From contig WELA01001312.1 in NCBI GenBank assembly GCA_009602735.1, forward strand, positions 1 through 40,313: a stretch of 40,313 nucleotides of DNA, read 5' to 3'. The notes under the pieces are model-generated. The model searched no databases and had not been told where the DNA came from. It saw only the letters and a program-made list of their open reading frames with translations. Below are positions 77 to 38,397 of this stretch, one piece after another. A program made the position numbers and the translations under genes. Position 1 is the first letter of the stretch. Each line of letters begins with the position of its first letter. Origin of the DNA: Mesotaenium endlicherianum. Taxonomy: Eukaryota.

Positions 77-479
77 TCTCCCCTTCCCTCCGCAGGATGT
101 CCTTCTGTGACTCACTGCGACTTCTCTGGGCATAATTGGAGGCCTCTTCCAATAGATCAAAGCCCTTGCCCAGCACTGCGTAGCGGTAGCTGCTGATTCT
201 CCTATGTTCTTCTTCAGGGTGCTACTTCCGCCTCTCCTCAGCTTGCCTCTCCTCCTCTGCCTTCTTGGCCTCCTCTGCAGCTTTTTTGTCCAGTTCTTTT
301 TGCCTCAGCCTGGCCTGTTCCTCCTCGTTCTTTTTCTTCTGTGCCTCCCGCTGTTGTTGGAGTCGTTGTGATTCCCGAGCAAAGATGGAGGATGATTCGA
401 TGTTGTTACAACATTGCTAGTATTTTGCATGTGTCTCTTCCGCCCTTCTCTTCCTCTTAAGTTCCGACTTCTGAGTCAT
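77..479 (-). pseudogene. 5' part of the extra ORF (ORF3) of element A, with two in-frame TAG stops
   Basis: Reads MTQKSELKRKRRAEE...YRYAVLGKGFDLLEEA and aligns codon for codon with 15205 onward. Confidence 0.9.
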
Positions 480-6611: not shown

Positions 6612-9001
6612 GATAACGACTTTCACATAATCGCTGACTGAGATAACTCAGTCCTTTGGTCGGAGAGTTAACGTTGACCTTCCGTACCTGGGCGACCGTA
6701 ACTTGCGCTGCACGTGCGGCACTATCGAGTGGATAGCAGTCGCGATATTAATCGTATGCAATATGTTATGTTATTTCAAGTAGTTTAGCAAATAAATATG
6801 GGATATGCTACGTGCTGTGTATGTATTTAACTATCTAAAAAATATTGTTGCTATGCTGATGTAACCTGTAGAATGCTTTAGCTATAATTACAACAGTATC
6901 CATGGCAACTCCAGACCACCTATAGAACGTTCTGCGCGCGTGCCGGTGAGGGAAGCAGTAATCTATCCCTAAATTTCTGACTATTCGTGATTGCGACTCT
7001 GGTAGGTGGTAGTGCTAGCATCTATTATGGATTGATGGCTATAGCTATGCTTACTTGTGCTGTATGTGGGTTTGCTAGAAGCAATATTTGCTATGCCGCT
7101 TGCTGTCGTGCCTAACAGCGTCGGACCCCTAGCACGTGCGTTGCTTCTCTGCACGTGTGCCTTCAACCTGGTCGACGTGTCGGCGGTCCCTTTCATGTGC
7201 AAGAATCCCCTGGTTGTTTGGTCGGTGCGTTGCTGCACGTGGGAAACCGACTGGATTGATGGACCCGTGCACATGTGTCAGTAGCGGACTGGCTTGGTGT
7301 TGACCCATTCTTGGTCTTTTTGCACTTGCATCATGCGGTGAAGCATCCCACTCTCAGTGCTTCCCATGCTCAACCAGTTCCTCCTGCCACACTACCAACA
7401 CTTAGTAGAAATTTTCAAAAAGTTATCTTATACTCAGCTTCCCTTGCACCCCTCCCTTTCAGCTGAGGCATCCGTGCCTTTCAGCTGCAAACTTCTATCT
7501 CTTGGCTCTATGGCTGGGGTTTTTAGGAAGGCAGTCAGGACATTCCCATCGTCCTGCCATAATCTCTTCTTCACCAATGCGGAAGGTGGGCCAACGGGCA
7601 CTACATTTATCCCAAGTTACAATTGCTCTTTGATCATCCAGTACTTTGCAGCTGACATAAGGCATGGCTAGCACCATTTCCTCAGGCATAGACTTAACCG
7701 TAGAGATATTAGCACAGCGAGCAGCTATGCACGTGATCACTCATGGTCTTACCATCAGAACCTTCCAGTTCCAACACAAAATTGTCGAACGCATGTTTCA
7801 CTAGTAAGATCACTGCAACTGAACTAGAGTCGATGGTGGTCTTGGTGTGGCGCTTGCGGTGCACAAAGTCTCCTTCCTGGATCTGCGTCATTTGCAGGCG
7901 GTAGCTCCCATCTCGCGTCTTGGCGTAACGCTGCGTGTCTCTTTTCTGTGCAATTTTTAGATTGTCCAGGGCAGCAGGCATCATGCGCTCAAATAACGCC
8001 GTACGGCGTACCATGACCTTTAGCAGTCATCAGGGTTGTCCAGGTCTTTCACCTGCTCAATCTCCTGCTTGATTAAGCTGGGCACAACTGGACTTTTGCC
8101 AAACACGATTTGAGAAGGCGAGTAATTTGCCAAAGCAGCTTGCTTACTAAATCTGTAACCCATAACCAGCCGTGGCAGGGCCAGATCCCAATTACGCTTA
8201 TCGTACTCAAGGCAAAATTTGCGCAATGCAGACTGAATGGTTTGCACCATCCGTTCTACTAGACCATCTTCTTATGGGTGGTCTCTAGATGTAGTGCGCT
8301 GGTCAATGAAGCATCTGTCCAAGAGTTTCTGAAAAGATTCTTGGAACTTAGACCCTTGGTCTGTCAGCACTTCTGCTGGAGCTCCATGACGTACAATAAC
8401 ACCGTTGAGGAGCGCTTCCGCGGTCCCCAAGCTCTTCTTAGCAATTAGAGATGCAACCTCTATCCACTTAGAGGAATGCTCAATCATGACCACAATGTAC
8501 TTGTTACCTCGCTTGGACCGCGGTAGCTCACGTGCGAGATTGCAGCTCCATCGGTAGCCTAAGCCCATGGCAGAGGTTGCAGGTGTGGGTTTTGCTGTGT
8601 AAAACCAGTCTTGACGCGACCACAGCTTTGGCAGGCTTTGATCACATCCTCACACTGCTGCTTCATGCCCCTCCACAAGTAAGACAGCTCCAGAAGACTG
8701 TATGTCTTCTTGACACCATAGTGTCCAGTATTCTCGTGCATTTCCAGCATCAGAGCTCGCCTTTCGGTGGGTTATGGCACCAACTTCTCATGACCAGTTT
8801 CTTCAATCTTGAATAGGTTATTGCGTTTCCAGCAAAACCTTTTTGCTCGATGGCTAACCTGGTCCTTCTCTTTCACAAATAATCCCTCCATGTGGGCTCC
8901 CGTCTTCAGCCAGTGCATACTGGCTTGATCTTTGCTATAGTCTCTCACAAATTTACGATGGTATCCGCTTAACCCTAACAGAGCTTTTAGCTTAGACACA
9001 T
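6612..9001 (-). mobile_element. 3' part of older non-chromovirus Ty3/Gypsy element D (RT tail, integrase, PHD-like tail, 3' LTR remnant)
   Basis: LKALLGLSGYHRKFV (RT thumb), H..TGHYG..CQSC (INT zinc finger), VLTDQGSKF (core); 6612-6740 aligns with 20037-20173. Confidence 0.85.
7495..8999 (-). pseudogene. pol: Fragmented pol of element D; RNase H apparently deleted near 8930
   Basis: ORFs 8772-8999, 8559-8750, 8272-8568, 8020-8250, 7709-8014 and 7495-7740 follow in integrase order; the RT thumb joins directly to the pre-integrase linker. Confidence 0.8.
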
Positions 9002-9162
9002 TGTGATGAATCAGTTCATTATTTATTGAAGTAATCGCATGTATAAATACTACACTGCCTAAGTATCATGTCCATATACTCACATACGCAAGTTCATTTA
9101 AATGAATGTATGTCGATGTAATGCGAGTTTACTTTGTCAAAAAGGTCAGCAGGATGACTTTT
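9002..9162 (+). repeat. 5' fragment of a related LTR (family C), interrupted by element B
   Basis: TGTGATGAATCAGTTCATT...GGATGACTTTT aligns with 37161-37358. Confidence 0.8.
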
Positions 9163-9785
9163 TGTAATGAATCTGTATATTAGTAGATACAATATTCATT
9201 TGAATATAATAGTTGTTAAGTTCAGCCTACTGAACTTTATGTAGTATTGAGTCTGCTGGACTTCATATAATTATCAGCTTAAGGACTCAGCCGGAAGCAG
9301 CAGGCTGAAGCCAACTTAAATCATTCTTGACACATTCTTTGACAGCCAGCTGACTTCCGTACTCGGTAGCAGCGAACTGCCTCGATATGCATCTAAGTGC
9401 GGTATGCTAGATGAATGGCCCTATGATGGTGCCATCGCACTGCCCGTTGAACAGTAAACTCATTCCATGTACATATGCTAGGCATTGCTCTCGAGTTCGG
9501 CATTCGGAAACAAGGCCAACTCTCTGGTACAGCTTACTGAGAGAGATCTGAATCCAAGGCGAGAAGCCATTGATACGCACTGTCTTTCAACCTTGCTTAT
9601 GTATGAGTCTACTGGTTGCATTATTGATGCTAGTTTACTTGCATTTGACTTACGACTATCATTCACTGCTAGGGTGTTGTCCTTTGCTGTTAAATCAATT
9701 AACGAACAATACCATAAAGATTACTTGCTGATATAAAGATCTTTATTAATTGTTAATCGCCTATTTGGCAAGTCGATTCATTTCA
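9163..9785 (+). repeat. 5' LTR of element B (~623 bp)
   Basis: TGTAATGAATC...CGATTCATTTCA; shares an internal deletion (GAATGGCC-CTATGATG-GTGCCATC) with the 3' LTR. Confidence 0.9.
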
Positions 9786-9786
9786 G

Positions 9787-9798
9787 TAATATCGGAGC
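9787..9798 (+). promoter_or_regulatory. Degenerate PBS (tRNA-iMet type)
   Basis: TAATATCGGAGC at the same position as A's TGGTATCGAAGC; TGG has mutated to TAA. Confidence 0.65.
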
Positions 9799-9819: not shown

Positions 9820-10742
9820 ATGGTAAGGACAAGGTCGTAAACTAGCACCTCCCAAGAGATGGAGAACCAGGATAACGAGAATGTCAAAAATCAGGCGGAA
9901 AGCCATGTAGCGGAAACCCGTATCTATTCTGAAGCAGTGGCAGATACTGCAGCTAGAGAAGCTGCAGATGAGGCAGCTCCTATTGCCGCAGTCGCAGCAC
10001 AGCAAGCTGAGGAGGAGAGAGCCAGATTAGAAGCTGAACAATTAGCAAAAGCCGTAGAAGATACAGAAAGGAGGGAAGAACAGCCAACTGACGAGCGCAC
10101 TGTCGAAGAACTTATGGCATCAAGGGCCAATGTTCTGAACCCACCTCCTGCTGTACAACTCAATGTATCCCTAGGTCAAATTTGTGACCGGCTGAATGCG
10201 GCAAGAATTGCTGCTGCAGGAGCGAGAGGGACTGTTGAGGACACTACTCAGCGAGTAGATGCCACTGCTGCTGCTGCATTTGCTAGACTATCAGACTTGC
10301 TAGAACGGTATAGGATAGCATACTTCAGGTATGGCTTGAAATCCGAAGACTCTGGTCATTTTGCTGAGAAGAAGTATGAGAAATTGCTGACTTGATCCAG
10401 GATGCTGATGCCTGGGATCAGCAGCAGTTCAATGACAAGCGCCAGAGTAATGCTTTGGTGTCTAAGGTCGTCAAGAAGCCCCACGGTTCCTACAATGCAA
10501 TTGAAGGAGACCAGGCTGAGGATGATGAGGGTGATGAGTACGAGTATGAGTATAATGCTATACAGTTCAGAGGAAGAGGTGGTCACTCTCGAGGTGGCTA
10601 TGGAAGAGGTGGTGGTAGGACTAAGCCGGGACACGCCTCAGCAATGTCTGTTTGCTTCCATTGCCAGCAATTGGGCCACTTCAGAGAGCAGTGTCCAATC
10701 AAGCACCTTCCAAAGGTCAAGAGAAAGGACCAGCCTTTATAA
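9820..10742 (+). pseudogene. gag: gag of element B (early stop, ~540-bp internal deletion, frameshift; CCHC zinc knuckle retained)
   Basis: ATG at 9820 then TAA at 9838 (Gln in A); CFHCQQLGHFREQC knuckle; RGG-rich stretch. Confidence 0.88.
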
Positions 10743-10809
10743 GACAGCAACAATAAGTAATCCAGTCTACTGACTGTGAGGATGCTAGAGATAGTGAGTC
10801 GTCACTAGC

Positions 10810-11493
10810 TGCCCTCGTAGCAGGTATTATGGGTCCTGCTGAACTGGATTTATTATGTATGCGCGACAACCAGATAAAGGAGACCATCACCAATATAGAT
10901 CCTCAATGAGTGCACACTCTGGGTGATCTTGTTCCACCAGATGTCCAACATTTCTTTGCTAAATCAGGAGAACAATGCGAAAGTCAGGAAAAGACAGTTC
11001 CCCCTATCAGACTGCATTGCATGATTGCAGGTAGGATGGTGAGGGCATTTGTTGACGGAGGGACGTCACATACTTTTATCTACAAGGACTTAGGTAAGCG
11101 GCTAAGGCTGCCTACTGTCACCCAAGGGAATAGAAAAATATTCCTTGGAGATGCCCTCGTGGTTGGTATTATGAGTCCTGCTAAACTGGATTCACTATGC
11201 ATGCCTGACAACCAGGTAAAGGCGACCATCAGCAATATAGATCTCCAAAGAGTGCACACTTTGGATGATCTTGTTCCACCTAATGTCCAACATTTCTTTG
11301 CTAAGTCAAAAGAACAATGCAAAAGTCAGGAAAAGACAGTCCCCCCTATCCTACTGCATTGCATGATTGCAGGTACGAAGGTGAGGGCATTTGTTGACGG
11401 AGGGGCGTCACATACTTTTATCTACAAGGACTTAGGTAAGCGGCTAAGGCTGCCTACTGTCACCCAAGGGAATAGAAAAATATTCCTTGGAGA
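10810..11493 (+). repeat. In-frame 342-bp tandem duplication of the protease N-terminal region
   Basis: Units start at 10810 and 11152 with TGCC microhomology at the junctions; single copy in A. Confidence 0.92.
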
Positions 11494-14400
11494 TGCCTCA
11501 AGTATCACGGGAGGAGTTATAACCAAGCCTATTGAGGTCCAACTAGGTTTTGGCATTGCAGTTCTAACCGAAACGCTTACATTTGAGGTACTCAACACTG
11601 GCTTTTATGATTTCGTGCTAGGCAGGTCCTGGCTTAACAGACATCAAGCTGAAGTGTGTTGGAGCAGAGGTACAGTTAAAGGTAGAGGAGCCAGTGATGG
11701 GCAGACTGACTTGGCACCCACCAGTGCTCTTCCTCTTGTCCTGTGTGGATGGCAAATGAAGGAAAAGAAGAGGCTTCCAAAAGGATGCAAGTTGCTGAAT
11801 GCAATGGAGTTCGTCAAAAGCTGGAACCAGAAGGAAGACAGAATGTTCTGTCTGCTGCTAAGAGAGGTACCTCCTCAACCTGAAGAAGTGGTTGAGAAAA
11901 AGGTAAGCCCTCCGGAGCACCCTACTGCTGCAAAAATTGTTGCTCAGTACACTGATGTATTTAATATGCCTCCAGGACTACCCCCTAAGAGGGAAGTAGA
12001 TCATAGGATTGATCTATTACCTGGGAGTCAGCCACCTTGGCAACGCACGTATGGCTTGTCTTATGTGGAGAGCGAGGAGTTGAAAACACAGATTGCAGAG
12101 CTTGAGAAAAATGGACATATTTCTCCCAGTAAATCACCGTACGGCGCACCCATTTTATTTGTTAAGATAAAGGATGACAGTATGCGGATGTGTGTGGATT
12201 ACAGAGCCCTGAACAGAATCACAGTAAAGAACAAGTATGCTTTACCCAGAATCGAGGACTTGCTTGATACCCTGTCTGGTGCTAAGGTGTTCAGTAAGAT
12301 AGATCTCAAGAGTGGGTATCATCAAATCAGAATTGCTGAGGGGGATGAACACAAGACTGCCTTCCGCACACGTTATGGACACTATGAGTTCAACGTGATG
12401 CCATTTGGACTGACTAATGCTCCTGCTACCTTTATGGGTGCTATGAATGACATTTTCAGACCTTATTTGGATAAGTTTGTGCAAGTTTTCCTGGATGATA
12501 TTTTAATTTTCTCTAAAGATGAAGCTCAGCACACTGAACACTTAAAGACAGTCCTGGACACTCTGCGGAAAAATCACTTGTATGCTAAAATGAGCAAGTG
12601 TGATTTCTTTAAGGAAAGTATTGAATTCCTAGGCCACGTTGTCAGTAAAGAGGGCATCAGTGTGGATCCTAAGAAAGTCCAGACCATAAGGGACTGGCCA
12701 GTACCACAGTCTGTCTCTGAAGTTAGATCCTTCCTCGGGTTGGCTAACTACTATAGGAGATTTATTGAGAATTATTCTTCAAAGGCCAGTAAACTGACTG
12801 ACCTTACTAAGAAAGACATCGGGTATGTGTGGGGGGAAGAGCAGCAGGCTGCCTTCCAGACCCTTAAAGATGCCCTTTGTTCTGCCCCAGTGCTAGCCGT
12901 GTATGACCCCAGCAAACCGGTGCAGGTGGTTACTGATGCCTCTGTCTTTGCCATGGGTGCTATTTTGTTGCAGCCTGCTGACAAGACCACAAAGGATGGT
13001 AAGGTACGGCAGGAGTGGCACCCTGTGTTGTATGAGTCTATGAAATTTAATCCAGCGGAGATTAATTACTCAGTGCATGATAAAGAGCTGCTAGCTATTA
13101 TTCATATATTCAAACAGTGGAGAGCATACTTAAATGGTAAAGCTTTTAAGGTGATTACAGATCATCTAGCTCTGACTCACTTTCAGAAGAAGTCCAAGCT
13201 GTCGAGGAGGGAGAACCGCTGGAGCCAGATGCTGGAGCAGTTCCAAGTCCAGATCGACTACAAACCAGGGAAGTTGAATCCGACTGATGCACTCTCTAGA
13301 AGACCTCACTTGCAAGAAAGGAACTTTAGTCAGCATGCTGTAGATAAAGTCCTGTGTGCACTCACTTCACTAAAGGTGAAAAAGTCCTTCCTTGAACAAC
13401 TTAGGAAAGCCTACCTTTCTGACCCAACATTTGAGCCCAGCCCCACTACTGGTATGTGTCGTGCTACCGCACTCGGGTATAAGCTTAAGGGAGGGGTCTG
13501 GGTGACTGAAACCACTTTAGGCAGGCTGAAGCTGGTCATTCCTAATAACTTGGAAATAAGGTCTATCTTACTGAGTCAAGCGCATGACAGCCTCCTGGGT
13601 GGACATTTGGGGCAGGCCAAAACTGTTGGCAAACTGGCAAAACATTATCATTGGGAGGGGTTACCCCGGGAGGTCTTGAAATATGTCAAGTCCTGTGACC
13701 AGTGTCAGAGAAATAAGTCTCGGCACACACCACCCGGAGGTCTCTTGCAACCGCTACCCATCCCAGCGGGACGCTGGGAAACTATATCCATGGACTGGGT
13801 GGTCTCACTACCAAGAACTGCCAACGGGCATGATTCAATACTGGTAGTCGTGGATAAACTGACAAAAATGGTCATTTTTATCCCCACAACTGTCAAAGTG
13901 ACTGCACTCGAAACAGCGAGACAGTTTTACAACCATGTAGTATGCCAACATGGGCTCCCTTCTAATATCATCTCAGACAGAGACTCGAAATTCACCTCTA
14001 AGTTCTGGAGAGCTTTAATGGGGTTAATGGGAGTTAAACAAATGCTCAGCACAGCAAACCACCCTCAGACTGATGGGCGGACTGAAAGAACTAACCGAGT
14101 TCTGCAGGAGGTGCTGAGAGCATATATTAACCAAAAACAAGATAATTGGGATGACCTGTTGCCTCAAATTCAGTTTGCGGTCAACAGTGCGGTGCACGCG
14201 TCAACGGGCAAAACTCCTTTTGAACTCAGCCTGGGTAGAGTCCCTAAGTCTCCTCTAGATGTGCTAGGGGAATCTTTAACTCACCCTGAAGGGATTGACA
14301 ACCCGGTCTCCCTCCAGTTAACTCAGGAGTTTGCTGACACCCTGTCAGAAGTCCAACGANAACCTACACAAAGCCCAAGAAAACCAACAAAAATACGCTA

Positions 14401-14887
14401 ATCAACACCGTCGGGAGCTGACATTTTCTAAGGGCGATTTAGTCAAACTGCATTCTCAGCACCTGTACCTCCCTGGTGTGGTCAAGAAAAAGCTTGGCCC
14501 TGTCTGGGTCGGTCCATATTCGGTGGTCCGTCGTGTCGGTCAGAATGCTTACAAACTGAACATGTCAGCTGAATACAAGGGGCACCCGGTCTTTAATGTC
14601 TCCTTCCTGGAACCATACATCAAAGGTGATACACTGTTCACAGGTCGGTTACCTGTCCAACCGGGACCGGTCCCCGCTGTCCAGGACGGCGACCCTGAGG
14701 AATATGAGGTCGGTGAGATTTTAGACGCTCGCTCGGTCCGTCGATCGTCTAAATATGTCTGAAGCACCTCATCCGATGGAAGGGTTACGATGCCTCTGGG
14801 GACACTTGGGAATTTAAAGACCAGCTGACCAATGCCAAAGGGGCGTTGAAACGGTTCCACCTTCGGGCGGCTGGGGCACCGCCCTAA
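10910..14887 (+). CDS. pol: pol polyprotein of B: duplicated protease N-part, RT, RNase H, integrase, GPY/F, chromodomain (frame breaks at N14360 and ~14760)
   Basis: 1163-aa ORF with [39 protein letters not shown] and D-D-E; then WVGPY and YEVGEIL..IRWKGY..TWE ending at TAA 14885-14887. Confidence 0.95.
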
Positions 14888-15204
14888 CTGTCCCTTCAGT
14901 AGACATGGGAAGATGCCCGGAGGTCCTGTCTCCATATAAGTTGGAGGGGGATGTGACAGTTAGTGACAGTTGTGACAGGCAGCCCACCTTTAAATTTAAG
15001 TTGGAGGGAGTGGTAGTCTCTGATCACCATATTACACACTCAACCTGCGCTCACACTCTCTAACTCAATTTTTCCCTTATATTCACTCACACCAACTATT
15101 CCACTCTAGGAACTCTCCCGATCGCGTCCCTCTTCATCAAGGGCACTCAGTAGCGGCAAAATATCATGACTTCACTAACTGCATTGTGTTTATGATTGAG
15201 CAGG

Positions 15205-16851
15205 ATGACTCAAAAGTCAGAACTCAAGAGGAAGAGAAGAGCGGAAGAGGCACATGTAGAATACTTGCAATTCCGTGGAGACATCGAATCATCTTCCATC
15301 ACCGCTCGGGAATCACAACGACTCCAACAACAACGGGAGGCACAGAAGAAGAAGGAGGAGGAGGAACAGGCCAGACTGAGGCAGGAAGAAATGGACAGAA
15401 AAGCTGCAGAGGAGGCCAAGAAAGTAGAGGAGGAGAGGCAAGCTGAGGAGAAGCGGAAGCAGCAGGCTGAAGAAGAAGAACAGAGGAGAATCAGCAGCTA
15501 CCGCTACACGGTGCTGGGCAAGGGCTTTGATCTACTGGAGGAGGCCTTCAAGTATGCCCAGAGAAGTTGCAGTGAGTCGCAGAAGGAAGGGGAGACATCC
15601 GAAAACTTTGACAAGTATATAGAGGTCGGCACAGGGCTCCTCCTCTACCACGATTACGCCAGGATGGTAGGATATACCATCGGAGAGGCCAAGGCAATGG
15701 CCCAGGTGAATGAAGCAGGAGCTGTCTTGATTCCTGGTATCTGGGGGGCCATTAGGGTCATCAGGATGATCCCCATGGACGCGGACAGCTTCAAGGACTC
15801 AACACCCCATAACAGGTTCAAGGCCATGTACAACGAGGTGGAGAGGAGGAGCTGGGAATTTGTGGCCAGGGAAACCAGTCAGCTGGACTTTGGAGGGCAC
15901 TGGTACCCTTGTACTCTTAAAAGGACAGACCCTGCCTTCTTTCAAAAGCCCACCGATTGGCGGTGGATGACCATCAACATGAGGGACCAGCAGAATGACA
16001 GGGCGACGGATGAGGATTTACTGACAGACCTAAAGGGGAACATAGTATTGCCCCCTCACATTGCGGCTTGGGACCCAAGATTGGATGGAATCAGAGACTG
16101 CATGAGTCAGGAGATGCAGGGGGACAGAAGCAGGGCCCGAGAGTCATTCTCCAAAGGGAGGCACGCTTATGCCAAATGGGCAAGTAAGCAAGGGGAAAAG
16201 GACTTCTATGCGGTCCGGGCTCAGCAGCCCCCACCAGCACCCAAAAGGGGAAGGTCAGTAGGATATTCTTTTTCTCGGGAAGAGCTGGAGCAGTTGACAG
16301 AAGAGACTCCAGACGTCTCAGAGGAACCCGGGGACGGAGAGGAGGAGGATTTGGAGGAAGACGAGGAGGAAGGCGAGGAGGAGGACACTAGCCCCGCCGT
16401 GATCCTGACGCCTGCCACATCCCCTATAAGGGAGAAGACGGGGTTGGCCATGCAACAACTCGCTGAAGAGGAGGATATCACTTGGCTGGGGACTGCCAGA
16501 GGACAGACCCTATCTCCGGGCAAGGAGACCCAGTCAGACAGAGCAAACAGGAGGGCTGCTCGGGAGATAGCCAGAGGCCTGCCAGCATCTCCCTCGCAGA
16601 AAGGGCATGTACCCTTGGCTCATGTCATGCAACATCCTTCTGGGATGCCGGTATACGTACCTGTCAGTTTGAGGGCTGCCCAGGAGAAGGCTGCCTCCCT
16701 CCAGACTGTGCAGGAGGAAACAGCCCAGTTACTGCGTTCTCCGCGGGGTCCTTACACGGAACCTCCCTCTCTGACAGGCTTCAGAAGACCCCAAGACAGG
16801 AGGAGGTCTGGCTCCCCTGAGTATAGGGCCTCAGGGACATCTCCCTCCTAA
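15205..16851 (+). CDS. Extra retrotransposon ORF (ORF3), 548 aa, unknown function: coiled-coil N-terminus, globular core, acidic tract, basic Ser/Arg tail
   Basis: Uninterrupted ORF between pol and the PPT; homolog in A with synonymous differences; no obvious transmembrane segment. Confidence 0.88.
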   Translation: MTQKSELKRKRRAEEAHVEYLQFRGDIESSSITARESQRLQQQREAQKKKEEEEQARLRQEEMDRKAAEEAKKVEEERQAEEKRKQQAEEEEQRRISSYRYTVLGKGFDLLEEAFKYAQRSCSESQKEGETSENFDKYIEVGTGLLLYHDYARMVGYTIGEAKAMAQVNEAGAVLIPGIWGAIRVIRMIPMDADSFKDSTPHNRFKAMYNEVERRSWEFVARETSQLDFGGHWYPCTLKRTDPAFFQKPTDWRWMTINMRDQQNDRATDEDLLTDLKGNIVLPPHIAAWDPRLDGIRDCMSQEMQGDRSRARESFSKGRHAYAKWASKQGEKDFYAVRAQQPPPAPKRGRSVGYSFSREELEQLTEETPDVSEEPGDGEEEDLEEDEEEGEEEDTSPAVILTPATSPIREKTGLAMQQLAEEEDITWLGTARGQTLSPGKETQSDRANRRAAREIARGLPASPSQKGHVPLAHVMQHPSGMPVYVPVSLRAAQEKAASLQTVQEETAQLLRSPRGPYTEPPSLTGFRRPQDRRRSGSPEYRASGTSPS

Positions 16852-16922: not shown

Positions 16923-16936
16923 TAAGTTGGAGGGAT
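16923..16936 (+). promoter_or_regulatory. Polypurine tract of element B
   Basis: TAAGTTGGAGGGAT immediately before the TGTA LTR start. Confidence 0.85.
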
Positions 16937-17392
16937 TGTAATTAATCAGTATATTGGTTGACATAATATTCATTTAAATAATATAGTTAAATAAGTTCAG
17001 CCTGCTGAACTTTAGTTAATGATCAGTCTGCTGGACTTTATATTTTATATCAGTTTCATGACCCATCCCGAAGTAGCAGGCTGAGGTCACCTTAAGTCAG
17101 CTTGCTGACACATTCTTTGACAGCCAGCTGACTTCCGTACTCATTAGCAGCGAACTGCATCTGAGTGCGGTATGCTAGATGAATGGCCCTATGATGGTGC
17201 CATCGCACTGGCTGTTGAACAGTAAACTCATTCCATGTACATATGCTAGGCATTGCTCTCGAGTTCGGTATTCGGAAACGAGGTCAACTCTCTGGTACAG
17301 CTTACTGAGAGAGATCTGAATCCAAGGCGAGAAGCCATTGATACGCACCGTCTTTCAACCTTGCTTATGTATGAGTTTACTGATTGCATTAT
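16937..17392 (+). repeat. 3' LTR of element B, truncated
   Basis: Starts TGTAATTAATCAG; matches the 5' LTR up to ...TGCATTAT, then abuts an inverted LTR. Confidence 0.9.
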
Positions 17393-18083
17393 TGAAATGA
17401 ATCGACATACCAAAATAAGCGATTGACAATTAATAAAGATCTTTATATCAGCAAGTAATCTTTATGGTATTTTTCGTTAACTGGTTTAACGGCAAAGGAC
17501 TACACACTAGCAGTGAACAATACTCGTCAGTCAAATGCGAGTAAACTAGCGTCAATAATGCAAATCAGTAAACTCATACATAAGCAAGGTTAGAAGACAG
17601 TGCGTATCAATGGCTTCTCGCCTTGGATTCAGATCTCTCTCAGTGAGCTGTACAAGAGAGTTGGCCTCGTTTCCGAATACCGAACTCGAGAGCAATGCCT
17701 AGCATATGTACATGGAATGAGTTTACTGTTCAACGGTCAGTGCGATGGCACCGCCTACCCGGGACTTAACGACGTTGGTAGGACCTCGGTTAACCAAATC
17801 CACCGCCATCTCCCATCATCCCGAATTGCCATCCATCATAGGGATGTCATCTGGCCATTCATCTAGCATACCACATTCATCGAGGCAGTTCGCTGCTACC
17901 GAGTACGGAAGTCAGTTGGCTGTCAAAGAATGTGTCAGCAAGCTGACTTCAGTTGGCTTCAGCCTGTTGCTTCCGGCTGAGTCCTTAAACTGATGATCAT
18001 ATAAAGTTCAGCAGACTCAATACTACATAAAGTTCAGTAGGCTGAACTTAATTAAGTATTATTATCAAGTGCATGTCATTACA
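17393..18083 (-). repeat. Full-length inverted LTR of the A/B family (solo-like, no TSD)
   Basis: Minus strand TGTAATGAC...GTCGATTCATTTCA; flanks ATTAT and GGTGT differ; no PPT or PBS adjacent. Confidence 0.88.
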
Positions 18084-20404: not shown

Positions 20405-20682
20405 GAGGTTACGTGAGGGGCGCCTTATTGACGACCACAAATAAGTGCCCTTACACGGTTGATACTCGCATATTGGCTCTAGTCAGGGCTTCACTCGACT
20501 CGGATAGCGTCCCCTGCAGCTTGGTACTTATGTAGTCTATGGCTGATAGTCGTTGTGGTGAAAACTCCCGATTGTCTTGTCCGAGCTCTTCCAATTCAGC
20601 TCACAAGTTGCGGCATCGAGCTGTTTTTTGTTCCTATTGTCCATTTTGACGTCTATTGAAATAAGGAAAAACGGAGTTTCCA

Positions 20683-21465
20683 AGGGAAAATCGCAAGCAC
20701 GGGAGGGTGGGTGGAAGGAGGGATGGAGGTGACGGGAAGCGCCCGAAATTGCTGCAAAGGGGTTATGGTATTGCGCACCTTGAGAAGCTTAGAGTAGAGG
20801 AGCTTATTTTTGGGCAGAGTCTAAATTCGACAATGCAGGATGCCATGATGGGCAGTACGCCTTCCAACTCCTGTCAGGCTCTGTATCACACTGGTCCGGC
20901 TTTAGCCTGTAGACCTCATGGATCATCCACCCCCTCTGGGAACGTCACATCTGGCAGCGCTTTGATGCATCATAGTTTGACGAGTGGGGCAGCCCAGCTG
21001 AGTGAGACTCCCTTGTTTGAGAGGCTGACGAGTGGCACCGCATCAGCAGTTTCAAGTGTTGGCTTAATTCCCAATATGCATCTTGGAAAGTCCATGCATG
21101 CTGCATCTGTACATTTGTCACTAGTAGCTACGTCTAGGAGCTCTGATGGTGATACTCCAATAGTTTCCAATAAAAAGGGAGACTTTGACAGTGAAGCATA
21201 CTTATCGAATTCTGAAAGTATGGAGGGCGATAGAGGACCAAAGAGCAGTGGCAACGATACTGATAGGGTGAGTGGAAGTATCAGTGATGAAAGGCCGTCA
21301 GGGAGAGGAGGTTTGTCTTCTCTTCCTAACTTACTCAGTGATAGTAATTTTCACACTGAGACAGCTGCTATGCCAAGGGTTGCTGCAAAGAGTGAACCTG
21401 GAGGTACAGATTGTCCACAGGTAGAGAATCTCGCTCCTGATTCTGCAGTGGACCTCTGCTCCGAC
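20683..21465 (+). CDS. Exon 1 (repeat unit 1) of a putative SPOROCYTELESS/SPEAR-motif gene; start uncertain
   Basis: ENRKHG...KRPKLLQRGYGIAHLEKLRVEE; ends VDLCSD at a phase-0 GTAAGT donor (21466). Confidence 0.7.
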
Positions 21466-21870
21466 GTAAGTTTCATGGCCTTTTGTGACCAGCCACTTTA
21501 AGAGCCTGTATTCTTCAGGATGAAAGCTGTGTGGTTTGGTGTGCTGTAGGTGTTCTGTTATCCAGGCTGTTCAACTGGTCACCAGCTAATGAAATGGAGG
21601 GTTTTGGTAGATTGGCTCACAGCTACCTGAAACAGGTACCTGGAATGATCCCTTTTGGCTCACATGGTTTGTGACCTTCTGTTGACTTTCCATAGATCCT
21701 TGTATCATGTGGAGTACTTTGGTGGTCTTTGAGGGGTATCAAGCAGCAAAAGACGGGGTCAGTAGGACATTTGCAGGAGAAGGAATAGTGATTTTGTCGC
21801 CCAAAGTAACTCAGCAGATTGGTCTTTAAGACGTTGTGCTTGATCCTTCCTTGGTCGTTCTGGTTGGCAG

Positions 21871-22725
21871 CAGGTGCAGGTTCCACATAATAGAGAAAGA
21901 GAAGTCGTCATCACTCCCTCCTCCCATATTAAATACTCTATGGAAAACCGCAAGCATGGAAAGTTTTCAGCGCCAGCGCCAGGGGGGGATGCTGGCACTG
22001 GAGGAAAGGCCTTGAAGACAACGAGAGGCCACGGAATTGCACATCTGGAGATGCTCAGGATGCTGGAGCTCGTCTCGGAACGGGGTCTGGGAGCCACCCC
22101 TCCAAACGAAGCCGAGATTGTTGGCATCTCGACCATGGAGAGTCATCTCTTGGCTCAATCCGACGTCCCAGCTTCAGCAGCTGCAATTTATGATGAAGCA
22201 GACTTGGCCCTTTCAAGCAAGACTCCTAGCGGGGCTGTGTTGGACCACAACCACACAATGACTGCCACAGGGCAGCAGCTGCAGGCTGTCATGCTGGCGC
22301 AGATACAGCCACCTATTGCCAAGCCCGCAGCATCATCCGAGGGGGAAGTTGGCGTGGGTGGGCCCTTGAGGAAGAGCATCTCTGCACTTTTCACCGGGAC
22401 TCTGGTAGCAGCCTCGGCGCTTCAAGAAGAGCAGAAGGGGAGGGTTTTGCACGAGGAGGATTCAGCGGGCGGGGACGGGCGTCAATTGGTTGTGTATAAG
22501 GAGAGCCCACTAGGCAAGGCCAGGAGAGCAAGGGAAGCCCATGCCAGCAGGGAGAGAGTGCGAGGAGGCGTGTACGCTCCGCCCATGAGGCACAGCGGGG
22601 GCGCCCTGGAGACCGATTTGGCGCAAGAGTGGGCATGTAGCCCCAAGCCTGAACCACATTGTGCGGGGAGGCTCAAGTTCCCCCCCGCCCCGCTGCCAGA
22701 GCTTGCGCTAGACCTGTGCCCTGAG
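21871..22725 (+). CDS. Exon 2 (repeat unit 2); has its own ATG at 21940
   Basis: Phase-0 CAG/CAG acceptors; MENRKHG...KTTRGHGIAHLEMLRMLE; ends LDLCPE at a phase-0 GTAGGG donor (22726). Confidence 0.7.
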
Positions 22726-23412
22726 GTAGGGCAATTTTTTACTTCTCCCCTTGCACACGTTGGAAGCTTTCCTGTGTGCATGTGAGTGGCGCTGTGAATA
22801 GTATGTATCTATCTGCTGGTGCATTTGGGGGGGGTATCCTGTAGGGAGGACTGCTTCCCGCTTTGATATTGCGAGGAAGTTGTGATTTAATATCAATGGT
22901 GTGTGTGTAGTATTTGCGCATATATGTACGTATGTGTGTATTTACGTACGTATGCGTGCGCGTGACTTTTTAGTCCATGCATGTGGAGGTACCTTGTCTA
23001 TGTAGTGGTGCTATTTGTGCATCATGGAGTACTTGCGTTGCATGGTCAAGTGGATGCCAAGTGGTGCTTGGGGATCAGGTGTCACGTGGCATTAATTGTC
23101 CTACATGCTATTGACAGGTTGTGGCCGCCTGTGAGATGCGTGACTGAGTGTGTTTTCTGGGGGCTCAGAGCGTGCCAAAGCTGAATCGTGCGCGCGTGTG
23201 TGTGCTCAAGATTAGGTGCTCACACACGTGCAAGCACAGGAACGCACTCGAGCGTCGTTCCTACACATGTGGCGAAGTGCATAGGATGCATGGAAAAATG
23301 GGGCCACCTTGACATTCCGAGGTGCCTGCTGGGTATGTCAGTATTATTGCAGGCGCTTTTAGCAACAATTTGGGATTTATGATGTCCCACTGACACCTGA
23401 CATGCTCTCTAG

Positions 23413-34365: not shown

Positions 34366-37036
34366 AAGTGCTGACGGAGTTATTGGAGAAGGGATTCATC
34401 CTAGAGCGAGTGTCCATTTACAGCGCCAGTCTTATTTGTGAAGAAAAAGGATGGGACTATGAGGATGTGTGTCGACTACCGAGCACTCAATAAGATCACC
34501 GTCAAGAACAGGTACCCACTTCCACGAGTGGACGAGTTGATTGACAGGCTTGTCGGGGCCAAGTATTTCTCGAAGATCAATTTGAGGAGTGGCTATCATC
34601 AGGTACAGATTGCGAAACGAGATGTTTAGAAGACTGCTTTCAGGACTCGCTATGGGTTGTTCAAGTTCATAGTCATGCCTTTGGATTGACTAATGCCCTG
34701 CTACATTCGTGGGACTCATGAATAGTATCTTCAGACCCTACTTGGACCAGTTTGTGGTGGTGTTTTTGGACGACATCTTGACCTACTCGAAGACCTTGGA
34801 AGAGCATGTGGAGCATCTGAGGAAGGTTGTGGAGGTCTTGAGAGATCACAAGGTTTATGGGAAGATGAGCAAGTGCGACTTCAGTCTCAAGGAGGTCAAG
34901 TTTTTTAGGCACATAGGAGTTGAAGGAGTCAAGATTGACAGAAGAAGGTGCAAGCAGTCAGAGATTAGCCGGTACCCGCTGATATTCATCAACTCAGGAG
35001 TTTCCTCGACATGGCGAATTATTATCGACGCTCCATCGAAGGGTTTGCCAAGGTGTGTGCACCGCTCACGGAAATGTTGAAGAAGCAGGAGAAGTGGCTA
35101 TGGGGTGACAAGGAGCAACAAGTCTTTGAGAAGATCAAGGAATTGTTGACACAGGCATCTGTGTTGGCAATCGCCAGTCCAGAGCTTCCTTTTAGCATCA
35201 TCTCGGACGCATCAAATTTTGCAGTGGGAGCCATTCTTCTCCAGGGCAAAGGGTTCCAATCTGTGGCATACGAGAGCAGGAAAATGAGTCCTGCCGAGCA
35301 AAACTATGCAGCACACGAGCAGGCTTTCAAGATTTGGCGATATTATGTGGACGGCAGGAAGGTGTTCATCAAGACCGACCACAAAAGCTTGGAGAAGTTT
35401 ATGACGCAGCCAACATTGACACCAAGACAAGCAAGGTGGTCGGAGTTTCTGCAACAGTTTGACCACGAGATTGGGTATTTACCTGGGACGATCAATCCTG
35501 CAGATGCTTTATCCAGGGTGTGCCACCTTGCAGCTGTCTCAATCATCAAGGACAATCTGGTCTTCAAGGAGAAGCTTCAAAAAGGCTATGAGAAGGACCC
35601 AAAGTTTGCTGATGGTGGAGCAGCTGAGTTCAACTCGAGTATGCAAACGAAGGACGGCATATGGTATTATGGTGATTCCAAGAGAGTGGTAGTACCTGAC
35701 ATCAAGGAGCTACGAGACTTACTACTTGCGAAGGATCACGACTGCTTATATGGTGGACACCATAAAGGCATGAACACGGCAAGCGTGCTGAAGCAAGAGT
35801 ACTCTTGGAGAAATATGGACAAGGACATCGAAGAGTGGATCAGGAGTTGCGATGCGTGCCAGCGGAACAAGACACTGAATCAAAAGAAGGGAGGTACCTT
35901 GCAACCCCTGCCTATTCCAAAGGATCCTTGGGAGCAGATTGCTATAGACTTCATCACATCTTTACCAGTGAGTGGTGAAGGGCACGATGCATTATGGGTT
36001 GCGTCTAATAGACTCATCAAGATGGCACACTTCATTCCCACGAAGGAGACTAGTACGGCAGCAGATGTGGCACGGCTATTCTTTGATCATATTTTCAGGC
36101 TACATGGGTTGCCAAAGGTGATTGTTTTAGACCGGAATCCAAGGTTTACTAGCAACTTTTGGCGGTCATTGTTTACTTTGATGGGGACCAAGCTGAGTAT
36201 GAGCAGTTCCTATCATCCACAGACAGACGGACAGAGTGAGAGGCTCAACAGAACTTTGCAAAAGGTGCTCAAGAGTTTCACTATGGAGGACCCTTCAGAG
36301 TGGGACAAGAAGCTGCCAGGGTTGGAGTATGCCTACAACAACAGCATGCACGGATCGACCAAGCAGTCTCCATTCGCTGTGGTTTGTGGAAGAGAAGTAT
36401 ATCATCCAGGGAACACCCTGTTTGGAGAAGGCCTAAGAGACTCGGGTTAATATTACACAAGCGTATATGGAGCAAATGGCCAAGACTTGGGACATGGCGA
36501 AGACATGTATTCGGAAAGCACAAGAAGAGCAGGTCAAGCATGCTAATAAGCATCGGAGGAAAGTGATATTCCTTGTGGGTGACAAAGTACTCTTGTCAAG
36601 AGAGAACCTACCTTCCACAGGCTAGAGGAAATTGCGGGCACGGTTCACAGGTCCTTTACTGGTGCTCAAGCAAGTTAACTATAAAATCGAACTTCCTTCA
36701 GGCTGACGTATCCATGATGTGTTCCATGTCAGTTGTTTGCAGCCATACGTTGACCCAAATGAAGGACACCCATGACAACTAACAACACTGCCACCACCCG
36801 TTGATATCGATGATATATTGGAGTATGAAGTGGAGGCGATTGTCGGCGATCGAAGAGTCAAGCGAGGTCAACGACTTGTTCAAGAGTATCTGGTCAAGTG
36901 GAAAGGCTACCATGCGGACGACAATACTTGGGAGCGGGGGGCCAACTTGACTCATTGTAAGAGTAAGTTAAGACGTTATCTGCAGAATGCGTCGAGGACG
37001 TCGCATCTTGAGGAGGGGAATAATGTAAGGTCATAG
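34366..37036 (+). pseudogene. pol: pol of element E (RT-RH-INT-chromodomain), frameshifted
   Basis: [48 protein letters not shown]; RNase H lacks the ELLA segment (reads HEQ-AFK). Confidence 0.93.
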
Positions 37037-37160
37037 GTTTATAAAGTGCATTTTTGAGTTTCATGAAAGTATGTCTTGATTGTAAAGAAGTGTAGAGTGC
37101 ATGTTTGTGATTATTTTGATATAAAGTTCGTCAAATTTGGTCAAGTATTGAGAGAGTTAT
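34366..37160 (+). mobile_element. Ty3/Gypsy chromovirus E (different family), 5'-truncated, with PPT and start of 3' LTR
   Basis: RT begins at ..LTELLEKGFI; no gag or PR upstream; PPT GAGGAGGGGAATAA at 37010-37023; LTR start TGTAAGG at 37024. Confidence 0.92.
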
Positions 37161-38397
37161 TGTAATGAATCAGTTCATTATTTATTTAATTAGTTGCATA
37201 CATAAACATAACACTAAATAAGTATCATGTCAATATACTCACATGTGCGAGTTCATCTAAATGAATGTATGTCGATGTAATGCGAGTTTACTTACTTTGT
37301 CGAAAAAGTCACAATGTACTGTGCTGACTTTGTTGAAAAGGTCAGCAGGATGACTTTTGTATCATAGATAGTTTGCTGAGATTTATATATCAGTTATATA
37401 CAGGATATAATATCAGTAGGTTGACATATAATAAACTCGCTTGATATTAGTAAGTATACTTAGCTTCAGTACGCTGTAGATAGATATATTCATTTAGGTT
37501 ATTATTTGTAGATTGGCGCATGTGACCGTAGTATACTGAAAGTCGGGAGGTCGACTGAGATTCGGTAAGCCGATGTCCTACCAGTGTGGTTAACTCCTGG
37601 GTAGGCGCAACCGTTGTCGGTCAACTGAACAGTTAGGACTTCAGTTAACCGACCAATTGATATGGTCGTTATACCTAGATCCGTGGGTCCCAACTTAAAC
37701 GGGTTTCCCACAAAACGGCGCACCTTGCGCCGTGGTCAAACAGGTAGTCACTAGGTACATAGCAGGCTGGGATCTCGTGTTTCCTCATTCTGGACAGTAG
37801 GCTTTACAGTCGGATTTCTACTTGCAAGTCATGTGTGCACTTTTGGGTTCGTTCTAATGACCAGCCTTCACAGAAATTGACATGGCTGCTTCGTCTGCGC
37901 TCCAAATGGGGCGAACTAGGACTTTTCGGAAAGGTCTCGTCAAGATGCATCCGTTACCGTTAAGGTTGCTCAATTTGGAGTAGTAGCAATGTTATGCCCC
38001 ATGACATTTCGGGGTCACACAGCGGACAGATTCCAGTGTTTTGCACCTAAGTCAGTGGGATGTGTTCTAGCTACATGATGGTCATCTGAATGAGAGCGCC
38101 TTTGCTATTTTAGTCCCCTGATGTCGTGCATGTGCTATACATGCTTGCATGCCTGGTAGGCAAGAGGCCATGAGTTTCTAAAGGAGAAGCTCAAGTCCTC
38201 AAGCTCGCCTCTTACTTGTGTCTCATGTTAGTGTGCAACAATGGCACACTACGGTAAGTGAGTCAAGGGTTATAGATGAGTAAACGGAATTCTTGTAAGG
38301 GCGAAGGTCGCTCCCTGATTTCACACGCTTCCACCTATCTCTGATCTTATATATTTAAATGAAATATATTAATCTTCAATAAGCATGATCCATTTCA
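37161..38397 (+). mobile_element. Solo LTR (family C) inserted in E's 3' LTR, with 5-bp TSD
   Basis: TGTAATGAATC...CATTTCA flanked by GTTAT at 37156-37160 and 38398-38402; may contain an inner insertion. Confidence 0.82.

Follow-up and report, generated by a model that had tools for sequence, protein, structure and literature searches.

The REXdb study describes extra open reading frames (eORFs) from 3,372 gypsy elements and places them in 314 unrelated groups; just 21.4% of them match the CDD and most have no known domain (PMC6317226). Such ORFs have been reviewed, and Tat/Rev-like or import roles have been proposed for them (PMC7264820). The described class closest to the gene reported here is the eORF-3′F / aORF-3S, which is best known from the SIRE, Athila/Tat and Tekay elements of seed plants and is often termed env-like for its transmembrane (TM) helices. 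Within the chromoviruses, REXdb credits 18% of its 782 Tekay elements with a sense 3′ extra ORF; Chlamyvir (44 elements), Tcn1, Reina, Galadriel and CRM each have a dash, which perhaps means rare rather than zero. The claim of an earlier sequence-only reading of this locus, that extra ORFs are uncommon in chromoviruses, is only partly right. Tekay elements of sunflower and grasses also have an accessory ORF (aORF) located 5′ of gag, which PMC11728184 describes as ~400 aa long, of no assigned function and present in conserved form in 500 of 523 copies; its features include helices, long disordered stretches and a predicted nuclear localization signal (NLS), and predicted NLSs and long disorder are reported there for both Tekay and Athila aORFs. 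In Grande (gene23) and Retand (TRP28), which are not chromoviruses, an antisense accessory gene that encodes TRP28 (PF04195) lies between pol and the 3′ LTR (PMC7264820, PMC11963269). In Grande, GENE23 localizes to the nucleus and is expressed from a promoter of its own (PMC7264820).

The window analyzed here, by which we mean the whole stretch of 40,313 nucleotides of Mesotaenium endlicherianum contig WELA01001312.1, contains several LTR retrotransposons. One of them, element B, is a Ty3/gypsy element on the plus strand that runs from the 5′ LTR through the primer binding site (PBS), gag, pol and the extra ORF to the 3′ LTR. The 5′ LTR (9163..9785) begins with TG and ends with CA and is followed by a PBS at 9787..9798 with two mismatches, which we take to be tRNA-Met-like from its motif. 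The gag gene (9859..10742) has a ~540-bp capsid-region deletion relative to its sister element A but retains the CCHC knuckle, and pol (10910..14887) has frameshifts at ~14360 and ~14759 before its stop at 14887. Pfam identified the knuckle, protease, reverse transcriptase (RT), RNase H, integrase, an SH3-like domain and a chromodomain, the last of these on the piece that follows the frameshift and at 25.7 bits against a cut-off of 25.1 (E 1e-5); the chromodomain is unbroken in A. Because of these domains, including the chromodomain, we assign B to the chromoviruses, and the order protease, RT, RNase H, integrase between LTRs, together with a PBS and a polypurine tract (PPT), is that of a Ty3/gypsy chromovirus. 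The terminal PPT occupies 16924..16935, and the 3′ LTR begins right after it at 16937 and continues to 17392, with 407 of 452 aligned bases identical to the 5′ LTR.

Several other observations were made on B and its surroundings. Its 3′ LTR is interrupted by a solo-like LTR (17393-18083) that belongs to the same family and lies in inverted orientation, and since the remainder of the 3′ LTR was not found past this insertion, the junction amounts to a 190-nt inverted repeat. The two LTRs of B (9163-9624 against 16937-17392) are 80% alike over the first ~170 nt and 96% alike over the remainder, an unevenness that suggests recombination or conversion between subfamilies and makes LTR dating of B unsafe. 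Where pol begins (10807-11497), part of the protease is present twice owing to a tandem duplication of 342 nt. The stretch at 9000-9162, in which B seems to have landed, is matched by the DNA at 37159-37358, and between A and B, at ~7800-8900 on the minus strand, lie fragments of a different gypsy-type integrase that is ~27% identical to that of B. Further downstream, at 20665-27258, there are several sense ORFs, 200-420 codons long, that are GC-rich and of low complexity, have no Pfam matches and share recurring similar phrases; they are possibly exons or another repeat family.

Chlamyvir elements are described as algal chromoviruses with a group I chromodomain and tRNA priming, while Tcn1 is self-priming (PMC6317226, PMC3350952). 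For the placement of B, a quick RT tree of 78 rows was built from B and its matches aligned over at least 215 residues, with named angiosperm matches below 300 bits dropped. The RT of B falls outside the angiosperm group (support 99) and the Chara group (99); its own position, close to Closterium and Nannochloris rows in a set of unnamed sequences, is weakly supported, in a tree that has no labelled Chlamyvir reference; its best identities, ~69-70%, are to unnamed proteins. The Y...W..Y residues of the B chromodomain are those of the aromatic cage of the group I type. With this chromodomain, a tRNA-type primer site rather than the self-priming of Tcn1, and an RT outside the angiosperm clade, B resembles the algal Chlamyvir elements. 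It differs from them in carrying an extra ORF, REXdb listing none for its 44 Chlamyvir elements (PMC6317226).

The extra ORF of B (15205..16851, plus strand) consists of an ATG, 548 codons in all and a stop, and it is preceded by a spacer of 317 nt that separates it from the pol stop; it ends ahead of the terminal PPT, so that the placement of a sense ORF between chromodomain and PPT by the sequence-only reading was borne out. It is a sense frame of at least 250 codons between pol and the 3′ LTR and separate from pol, as in the eORF-3′F / aORF-3S class. The remaining five frames across it contain 14-23 stops each, and the chance of so long an open run is ~5e-11 by composition. The same reading made much of the ORF being unbroken despite lesions elsewhere in B. 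The lesions, namely the gag deletion, the PBS mismatches and the pol frameshifts, are real, yet the intactness of the ORF is weak evidence, because the pol of B is likewise without stops over 1,150 codons and because a neutral ORF of this size would stay free of stops with a probability of 0.10-0.24 at 2.2-3.5% private divergence, indels not counted.

Sister element A lies on the minus strand and is ~86% identical to B. Its version of this region comprises the spacer and, at 99..479 (minus strand), codons 1-127 of the extra ORF, after which unrelated DNA follows. It had been said that A has the ORF too; the first 127 codons are indeed present, but they are not intact, with in-frame stops at codons 21 and 86. 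The reported four silent and zero replacement changes between A and B in codons 1-13 were counted correctly, but this is the best-looking window: codons 14-127 give 12.3 silent against 24.7 replacement changes (P 0.29, not significant). Over the 124 comparable codons among codons 1-127 there are 16.3 silent and 24.7 replacement changes, corresponding to an omega of 0.33, or 0.53 when corrected for transitions (P 0.06). The control values for the same pair, plain and corrected, are 0.25 and 0.37 for RT-RNase H, 0.21 and 0.30 for integrase, and 0.55 and 0.73 for the N-terminus of gag; the protease value (1.88) was left out of this comparison because it spans the duplicated region of B with its frame unverified.

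The evidence for selection comes from other copies of the family. Parts of the ORF are present in 20 of the 24 public runs listed, from 7 studies and under five organism labels. Four runs were compared with B over 15480-16260, the core of the ORF, with 40 of the 58 differences listed and each site classed singly. All 40 listed differences together comprise 22 silent changes against 11.5 expected (P 5e-4) and no stops, while two shifted frames show no silent excess and one of them would gain 5 stops. The variants were also split at 90% frequency in run X1, a limit that was picked after inspection of the data. Of the 23 under it, 16 are silent against 7.2 expected from the type of change and the CpG context (P ~1e-4, omega ~0.2); the 17 at or above it, which are private to B, include 6 against 4.3 expected (P 0.25) and look neutral. 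This pattern fits a gene that would be under constraint in those lineages that multiply and would drift in the inserted copy B. A single contig of run X7 that crosses the core, for which all 26 differences are listed, has 12 silent changes against 7.3 expected (P 0.03), and the sole core indel listed at 15% or more is 15 nt long and in frame. In the worst case, in which all 18 unlisted variants were replacements, P would become 0.08 overall and 0.18 for the segregating variants, and significance would be lost.

In many copies, then, the protein is conserved over the core on the 40 of 58 variants listed, which is a further trait of the eORF-3′F / aORF-3S class; the tested stretch ends ahead of residues ~353-548. 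As to the dN/dS across copies that the sequence-only reading had called for, the variants of the public runs (40 of 58 listed) give an omega of ~0.2 for the segregating core variants in X1 rather than a value near 1. Its claim of a selected accessory gene is thereby supported by the family-wide excess of silent variants and not by the arguments that had been offered for it. We consider it very likely from these counts that purifying selection held the protein in the family during its multiplication, and we regard the extra ORF as a real and very probably selected accessory gene, an orphan, in a chromovirus family of algal type.

The spacer offers a suggestion about how the gene was acquired. 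An identical 11-nt purine motif occurs at 14938, 14998 and 16924, each time with TG within a few bases. The first PPT-like copy (14938..14950, plus strand, then TG) stands 50 nt past the pol stop, where a plain chromovirus would have its PPT, and the second (14998..15011, plus strand) is likewise followed by TG; both are recognizable in A at ~720-780 on the minus strand. The proximity of the first copy to the usual PPT position suggests that a cassette was gained behind an ancestral PPT, and the difference in GC3 between the extra ORF (0.62) and pol (0.49) also points to capture. From these features we find capture of the cassette behind the ancestral PPT somewhat likelier than the contrary, and the upstream copies could be relics of it or central plus-strand primers. 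A relic of an LTR in the spacer was considered and rejected, as the spacer is unlike every LTR in the window. In runs X1 and X6 the summed contig depth, which is not copy number, drops ~threefold or more at the end of pol (14833-15139), a weak hint that many relatives of pol are without the extra-ORF region or have it replaced. The window also contains a third, more distant chromovirus at ~34400-37700, with an unbroken-looking chromodomain and an RT 51-67% identical to that of B; its purine tract comes directly after the chromodomain, and by comparison with this arrangement the first copy in B is close to the usual PPT position.

The protein begins with a basic motif (residues 8-13), followed by a charged helix (~33-98), an orphan core (~100-340), a second basic motif (347-350), an acidic tract (~361-396, pI 4.05) and a tail rich in SP and R that is predicted to be disordered. 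K-K/R-x-K/R motifs start at residues 8 and 347, and there are ten S/T-P sites; the tail (401-548) is basic (pI 10.3), rich in S/T-P and carries the RRRSGSP motif. The NLS-like KRKRR (9-13), the acidic tract and the RRRSGSP tail had all been noticed before and are all present. The codons for the NLS-like motif differ between A and B by silent changes alone. The E/K/R/Q coiled coil that had been proposed was rejected: the segment at residues 33-98 has 56% E/K/R, 8% LIVMF and no hydrophobic heptad, and it contains 37 E-K/R pairs at i+3/i+4 against 19.9 in shuffles (0 of 2000 as high). Such a charge pattern with no heptad is the signature of a charged single alpha-helix, which the segment resembles, and single-sequence AlphaFold models one helix with pLDDT 85-93 over residues 41-90. 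The core has an ordinary globular composition; its description as a ~240-aa Trp-rich core holds to the extent of 7 Trp in 241 residues, which is a modest enrichment. The usual hydropathy cut-off for a TM segment is 1.6, and the best 19-residue Kyte-Doolittle window of the protein reaches 1.54 at 171-191, where positions 175 and 183 have more polar residues in most other copies. The N-terminus is charged and not signal peptide-like, and the 548 residues contain no N-x-S/T sequon. The opinions that the protein has no clear TM helix and is not env-like have therefore stood, since it shows no clear TM helix by Kyte-Doolittle hydropathy, no signal peptide-like N-terminus and no glycosylation sequon.

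We were unable to find a relative of this protein. A phmmer search of the core against 1.84 billion protein representatives returned 0 matches at E 0.001 and was the search that covered proteins longer than 959 aa; a word-index search of the whole protein against lengths of 301-959 gave no relative, and the core against proteins of 30-300 aa gave 204 candidates, none at E 1. Pfam produced at most weak low-complexity matches to the extra ORF, with no RNA-binding domain, knuckle or capsid family and no env or movement family, and the Athila ORF1, TRP28 and plant mobile domain families (PF03078, PF04195, PF10536) gave no match at E up to 1. There were 0 matches among PDB sequences at E 10, no usable match in the ESM Atlas for the core or the whole protein, and none confirmed among the 126 and 7 pattern matches in JGI metagenome and IMG/VR contigs. 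A match to a described retroelement ORF family, which would have spoken against the sequence-only reading, was thus absent from Pfam, PDB, the ESM Atlas and the 1.84 billion representatives. The fold comparison proposed for the core was uninformative: single-sequence AlphaFold reached a pLDDT of 45 for the whole protein and 35 for the core, whose models are unusable, and Foldseek gave nothing at E 0.001 with a core model for which, at pLDDT 35, the search is not meaningful. A search for related elements by integrase found no viral sequence and a single contig, 1.1 kb long and 35% identical. The third frame of REM1 was also rejected as a counterpart, being a reversed integrase/chromodomain remnant (PMC2774666). 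No report of an extra ORF in an algal chromovirus was found in the open-access literature.

The extra ORF is like the eORF-3′F / aORF-3S of PMC6317226 and PMC7264820 in position, strand, length above 250 codons, presence in many copies and lack of a known domain, and it differs in being without TM helices and in belonging to an algal-type chromovirus. With the Tekay 5′ aORF it shares, when compared by description, the setting of an accessory ORF in a chromovirus, an NLS-like motif, a helix and disorder; the Tekay ORF lies 5′ of gag and belongs to a seed-plant clade. It is like the Grande and Retand ORFs in lying between pol and the 3′ LTR and unlike them in being sense and in having no PF04195 match. 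In this sense the kind of ORF, a sense 3′ extra ORF, is known, and the protein and its clade context are new.

How the gene would be expressed can be proposed from predicted splice signals. A candidate donor in the leader (9820..9828, GT at 9823, plus strand) is identical in A, and a predicted branch point (CTAAC) and 3′ splice acceptor (YAG) at 15175..15203 on the plus strand end one base before the ATG; the YAG is retained in A, where the branch motif is altered. Use of this acceptor would remove the upstream ATGs at 15166 and 15192, and the 64 nt preceding the ATG are more similar to A (58/64 identical) than the sequence just upstream (52/71). Against this, such a combination of branch and acceptor occurs by chance at 0.58 per kb in the window, and a message spliced from the 9823 donor to this acceptor would have an ATG in the wrong frame 4 nt ahead of its start codon. 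We give an even chance to an env-style subgenomic message made through the predicted acceptor, and an internal promoter for the extra ORF is possible. For the subgenomic transcript that had been suggested as a check, coverage was very thin: in two 2026 poly(A) runs, of which ~6% and ~12% were read, depth was 0-1.5 per ORF bin and no RNA joint was listed at this low depth. The 256 and 340 reads on B in these runs included 0 and 1 that were 99% alike to it; depth reached 11 at the end of the integrase, and gag was bare too. The family looks largely silent in these two samples, and none of the ORF-bearing runs listed in the run index is RNA. Over the integrase end and the spacer (13605-15200), poly(A) reads from other copies stack on one strand and fade near the ORF start, with low counts and an uncalibrated strand; if the library were of the usual stranded type, they would be antisense RNA starting near the 5′ end of the ORF.

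Our leading explanation, held tentatively and at a little under even chances, is that the ORF encodes a nuclear regulator, itself translated from a predicted spliced subgenomic RNA, that would aid the expression of its own element. It is favored by the K-K/R-x-K/R motifs, the ten S/T-P sites, the lack of sequons and the silent-only changes in the NLS codons of A, and by the precedents of the nuclear Grande GENE23 and the NLS-bearing Tekay and Athila aORFs. The predicted spliced RNA, with its acceptor just before the ATG, would yield the protein, and the N-terminal basic motif would bring about its nuclear import; that this motif takes the protein into the nucleus we think fairly likely from its sequence, the earlier label "nuclear" resting on the two basic motifs, of which the first is kept through silent changes in A. 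The stiff charged helix may space the NLS from the folded core, the core may bind nucleic acid or chromatin, the acidic tract and the SP/R-rich tail may recruit host factors, and the protein might then raise LTR transcription or counter silencing. For the anti-silencing or chromatin-binding factor put forward in the sequence-only reading, the searches gave no direct support, neither a homolog nor a usable fold. VANC proteins are element-specific anti-silencing factors of VANDAL DNA transposons, with activity shown. They provide the model for element-encoded anti-silencing, although they belong to DNA transposons and no similarity to the ORF of B was found; they are mentioned in PMC11728184. 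The third chromovirus of the window counts against a nuclear regulator in that its chromodomain leads through a purine tract into the LTR with no extra ORF. A fuller proposal, in which a gene with its own fold, captured by an algal chromovirus lineage behind the ancestral PPT, makes a nuclear anti-silencing or transactivating protein by retrovirus-style splicing while the upstream PPTs act as central plus-strand primers, seems to us unlikely.

The alternatives, all of which we rank behind the nuclear regulator, are taken here in order of decreasing probability. A nuclear RNA-handling factor of the Rev/Rex or SR type, acting in splicing or export of the genomic RNA and not on transcription or chromatin, would account for the Arg-rich basic motifs, the basic RRRSGSP / SP-rich tail (pI 10.3) and the predicted donor and acceptor in retrovirus-like positions, and such a role has been raised for extra ORFs (PMC7264820). 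It is an unlikely explanation, given that Pfam detected no RNA-binding domain, that the protein has one RS dipeptide run only and that no spliced read was listed in the partly read poly(A) runs (~6% and ~12%). Rather unlikely also is a passenger, that is, a captured gene of host or foreign origin on which constraint was temporary or weak, which is of little use to the element and is open in B by chance. The neutral look of the changes private to B, the stop-free probability of 0.10-0.24, the dead copy in A, the codon usage unlike pol, the near absence of RNA and the non-significant worst-case count all agree with it; the variants that split the copies of the family, however, are mostly silent (16/23) and arose after capture, the ORF is present in the 20 listed runs of 7 studies and five organism labels, and the protein searches, which did not include the host genome, gave no source gene.

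The same basic motif and helix might instead serve the particle or the pre-integration complex, as an import signal or as a tether of integrase to chromatin alongside the chromodomain. The NLS-like motif is strong, N-terminal and kept in A, a rigid charged helix suits a tether, and retroviral accessory proteins serve import of the pre-integration complex (PMC7264820); yet the chromovirus at ~34400-37700 does without such an ORF and nothing ties the protein to integrase, and we hold this role to be improbable. An env-like or cell-to-cell movement protein would explain the env position, the sense strand, the predicted acceptor upstream and the one mildly hydrophobic stretch at 171-191, but with no segment at 1.6, no signal peptide-like N-terminus, no sequon, more polar residues at 175 and 183 in most copies and no Pfam env or movement family it is very improbable. 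Equally so is an origin as the gag of a nested second element or a duplicate of gag, with the upstream PPT and TG as an old LTR junction. The PPT-like motif is followed by TG twice in the spacer and gag too starts with a charged helix; when the protein is aligned to the gag of A and of B, however, 84-285 of 300 shuffles score just as well, Pfam matched it to neither a knuckle nor a capsid family, and the spacer is unlike the LTRs of the window.

At present the gene is one further orphan extra ORF without known function. Extra ORFs are present in thousands of plant retrotransposons, and PMC6317226 asks whether they have any function. The case described here contributes purifying-selection evidence for an orphan, non-env, sense 3′ ORF in a type of chromovirus for which REXdb lists none, and the copy in B, being natural and unbroken, is ready for expression and localization without alteration. 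If the fuller proposal above is true, group I chromoviruses would have in this protein their first functional accessory regulator, and the element would count as a "complex" retrotransposon, as HIV is complex through Tat/Rev. Should the protein counter silencing, VANC would have in it a counterpart among retrotransposons, one with an unrecognized domain.
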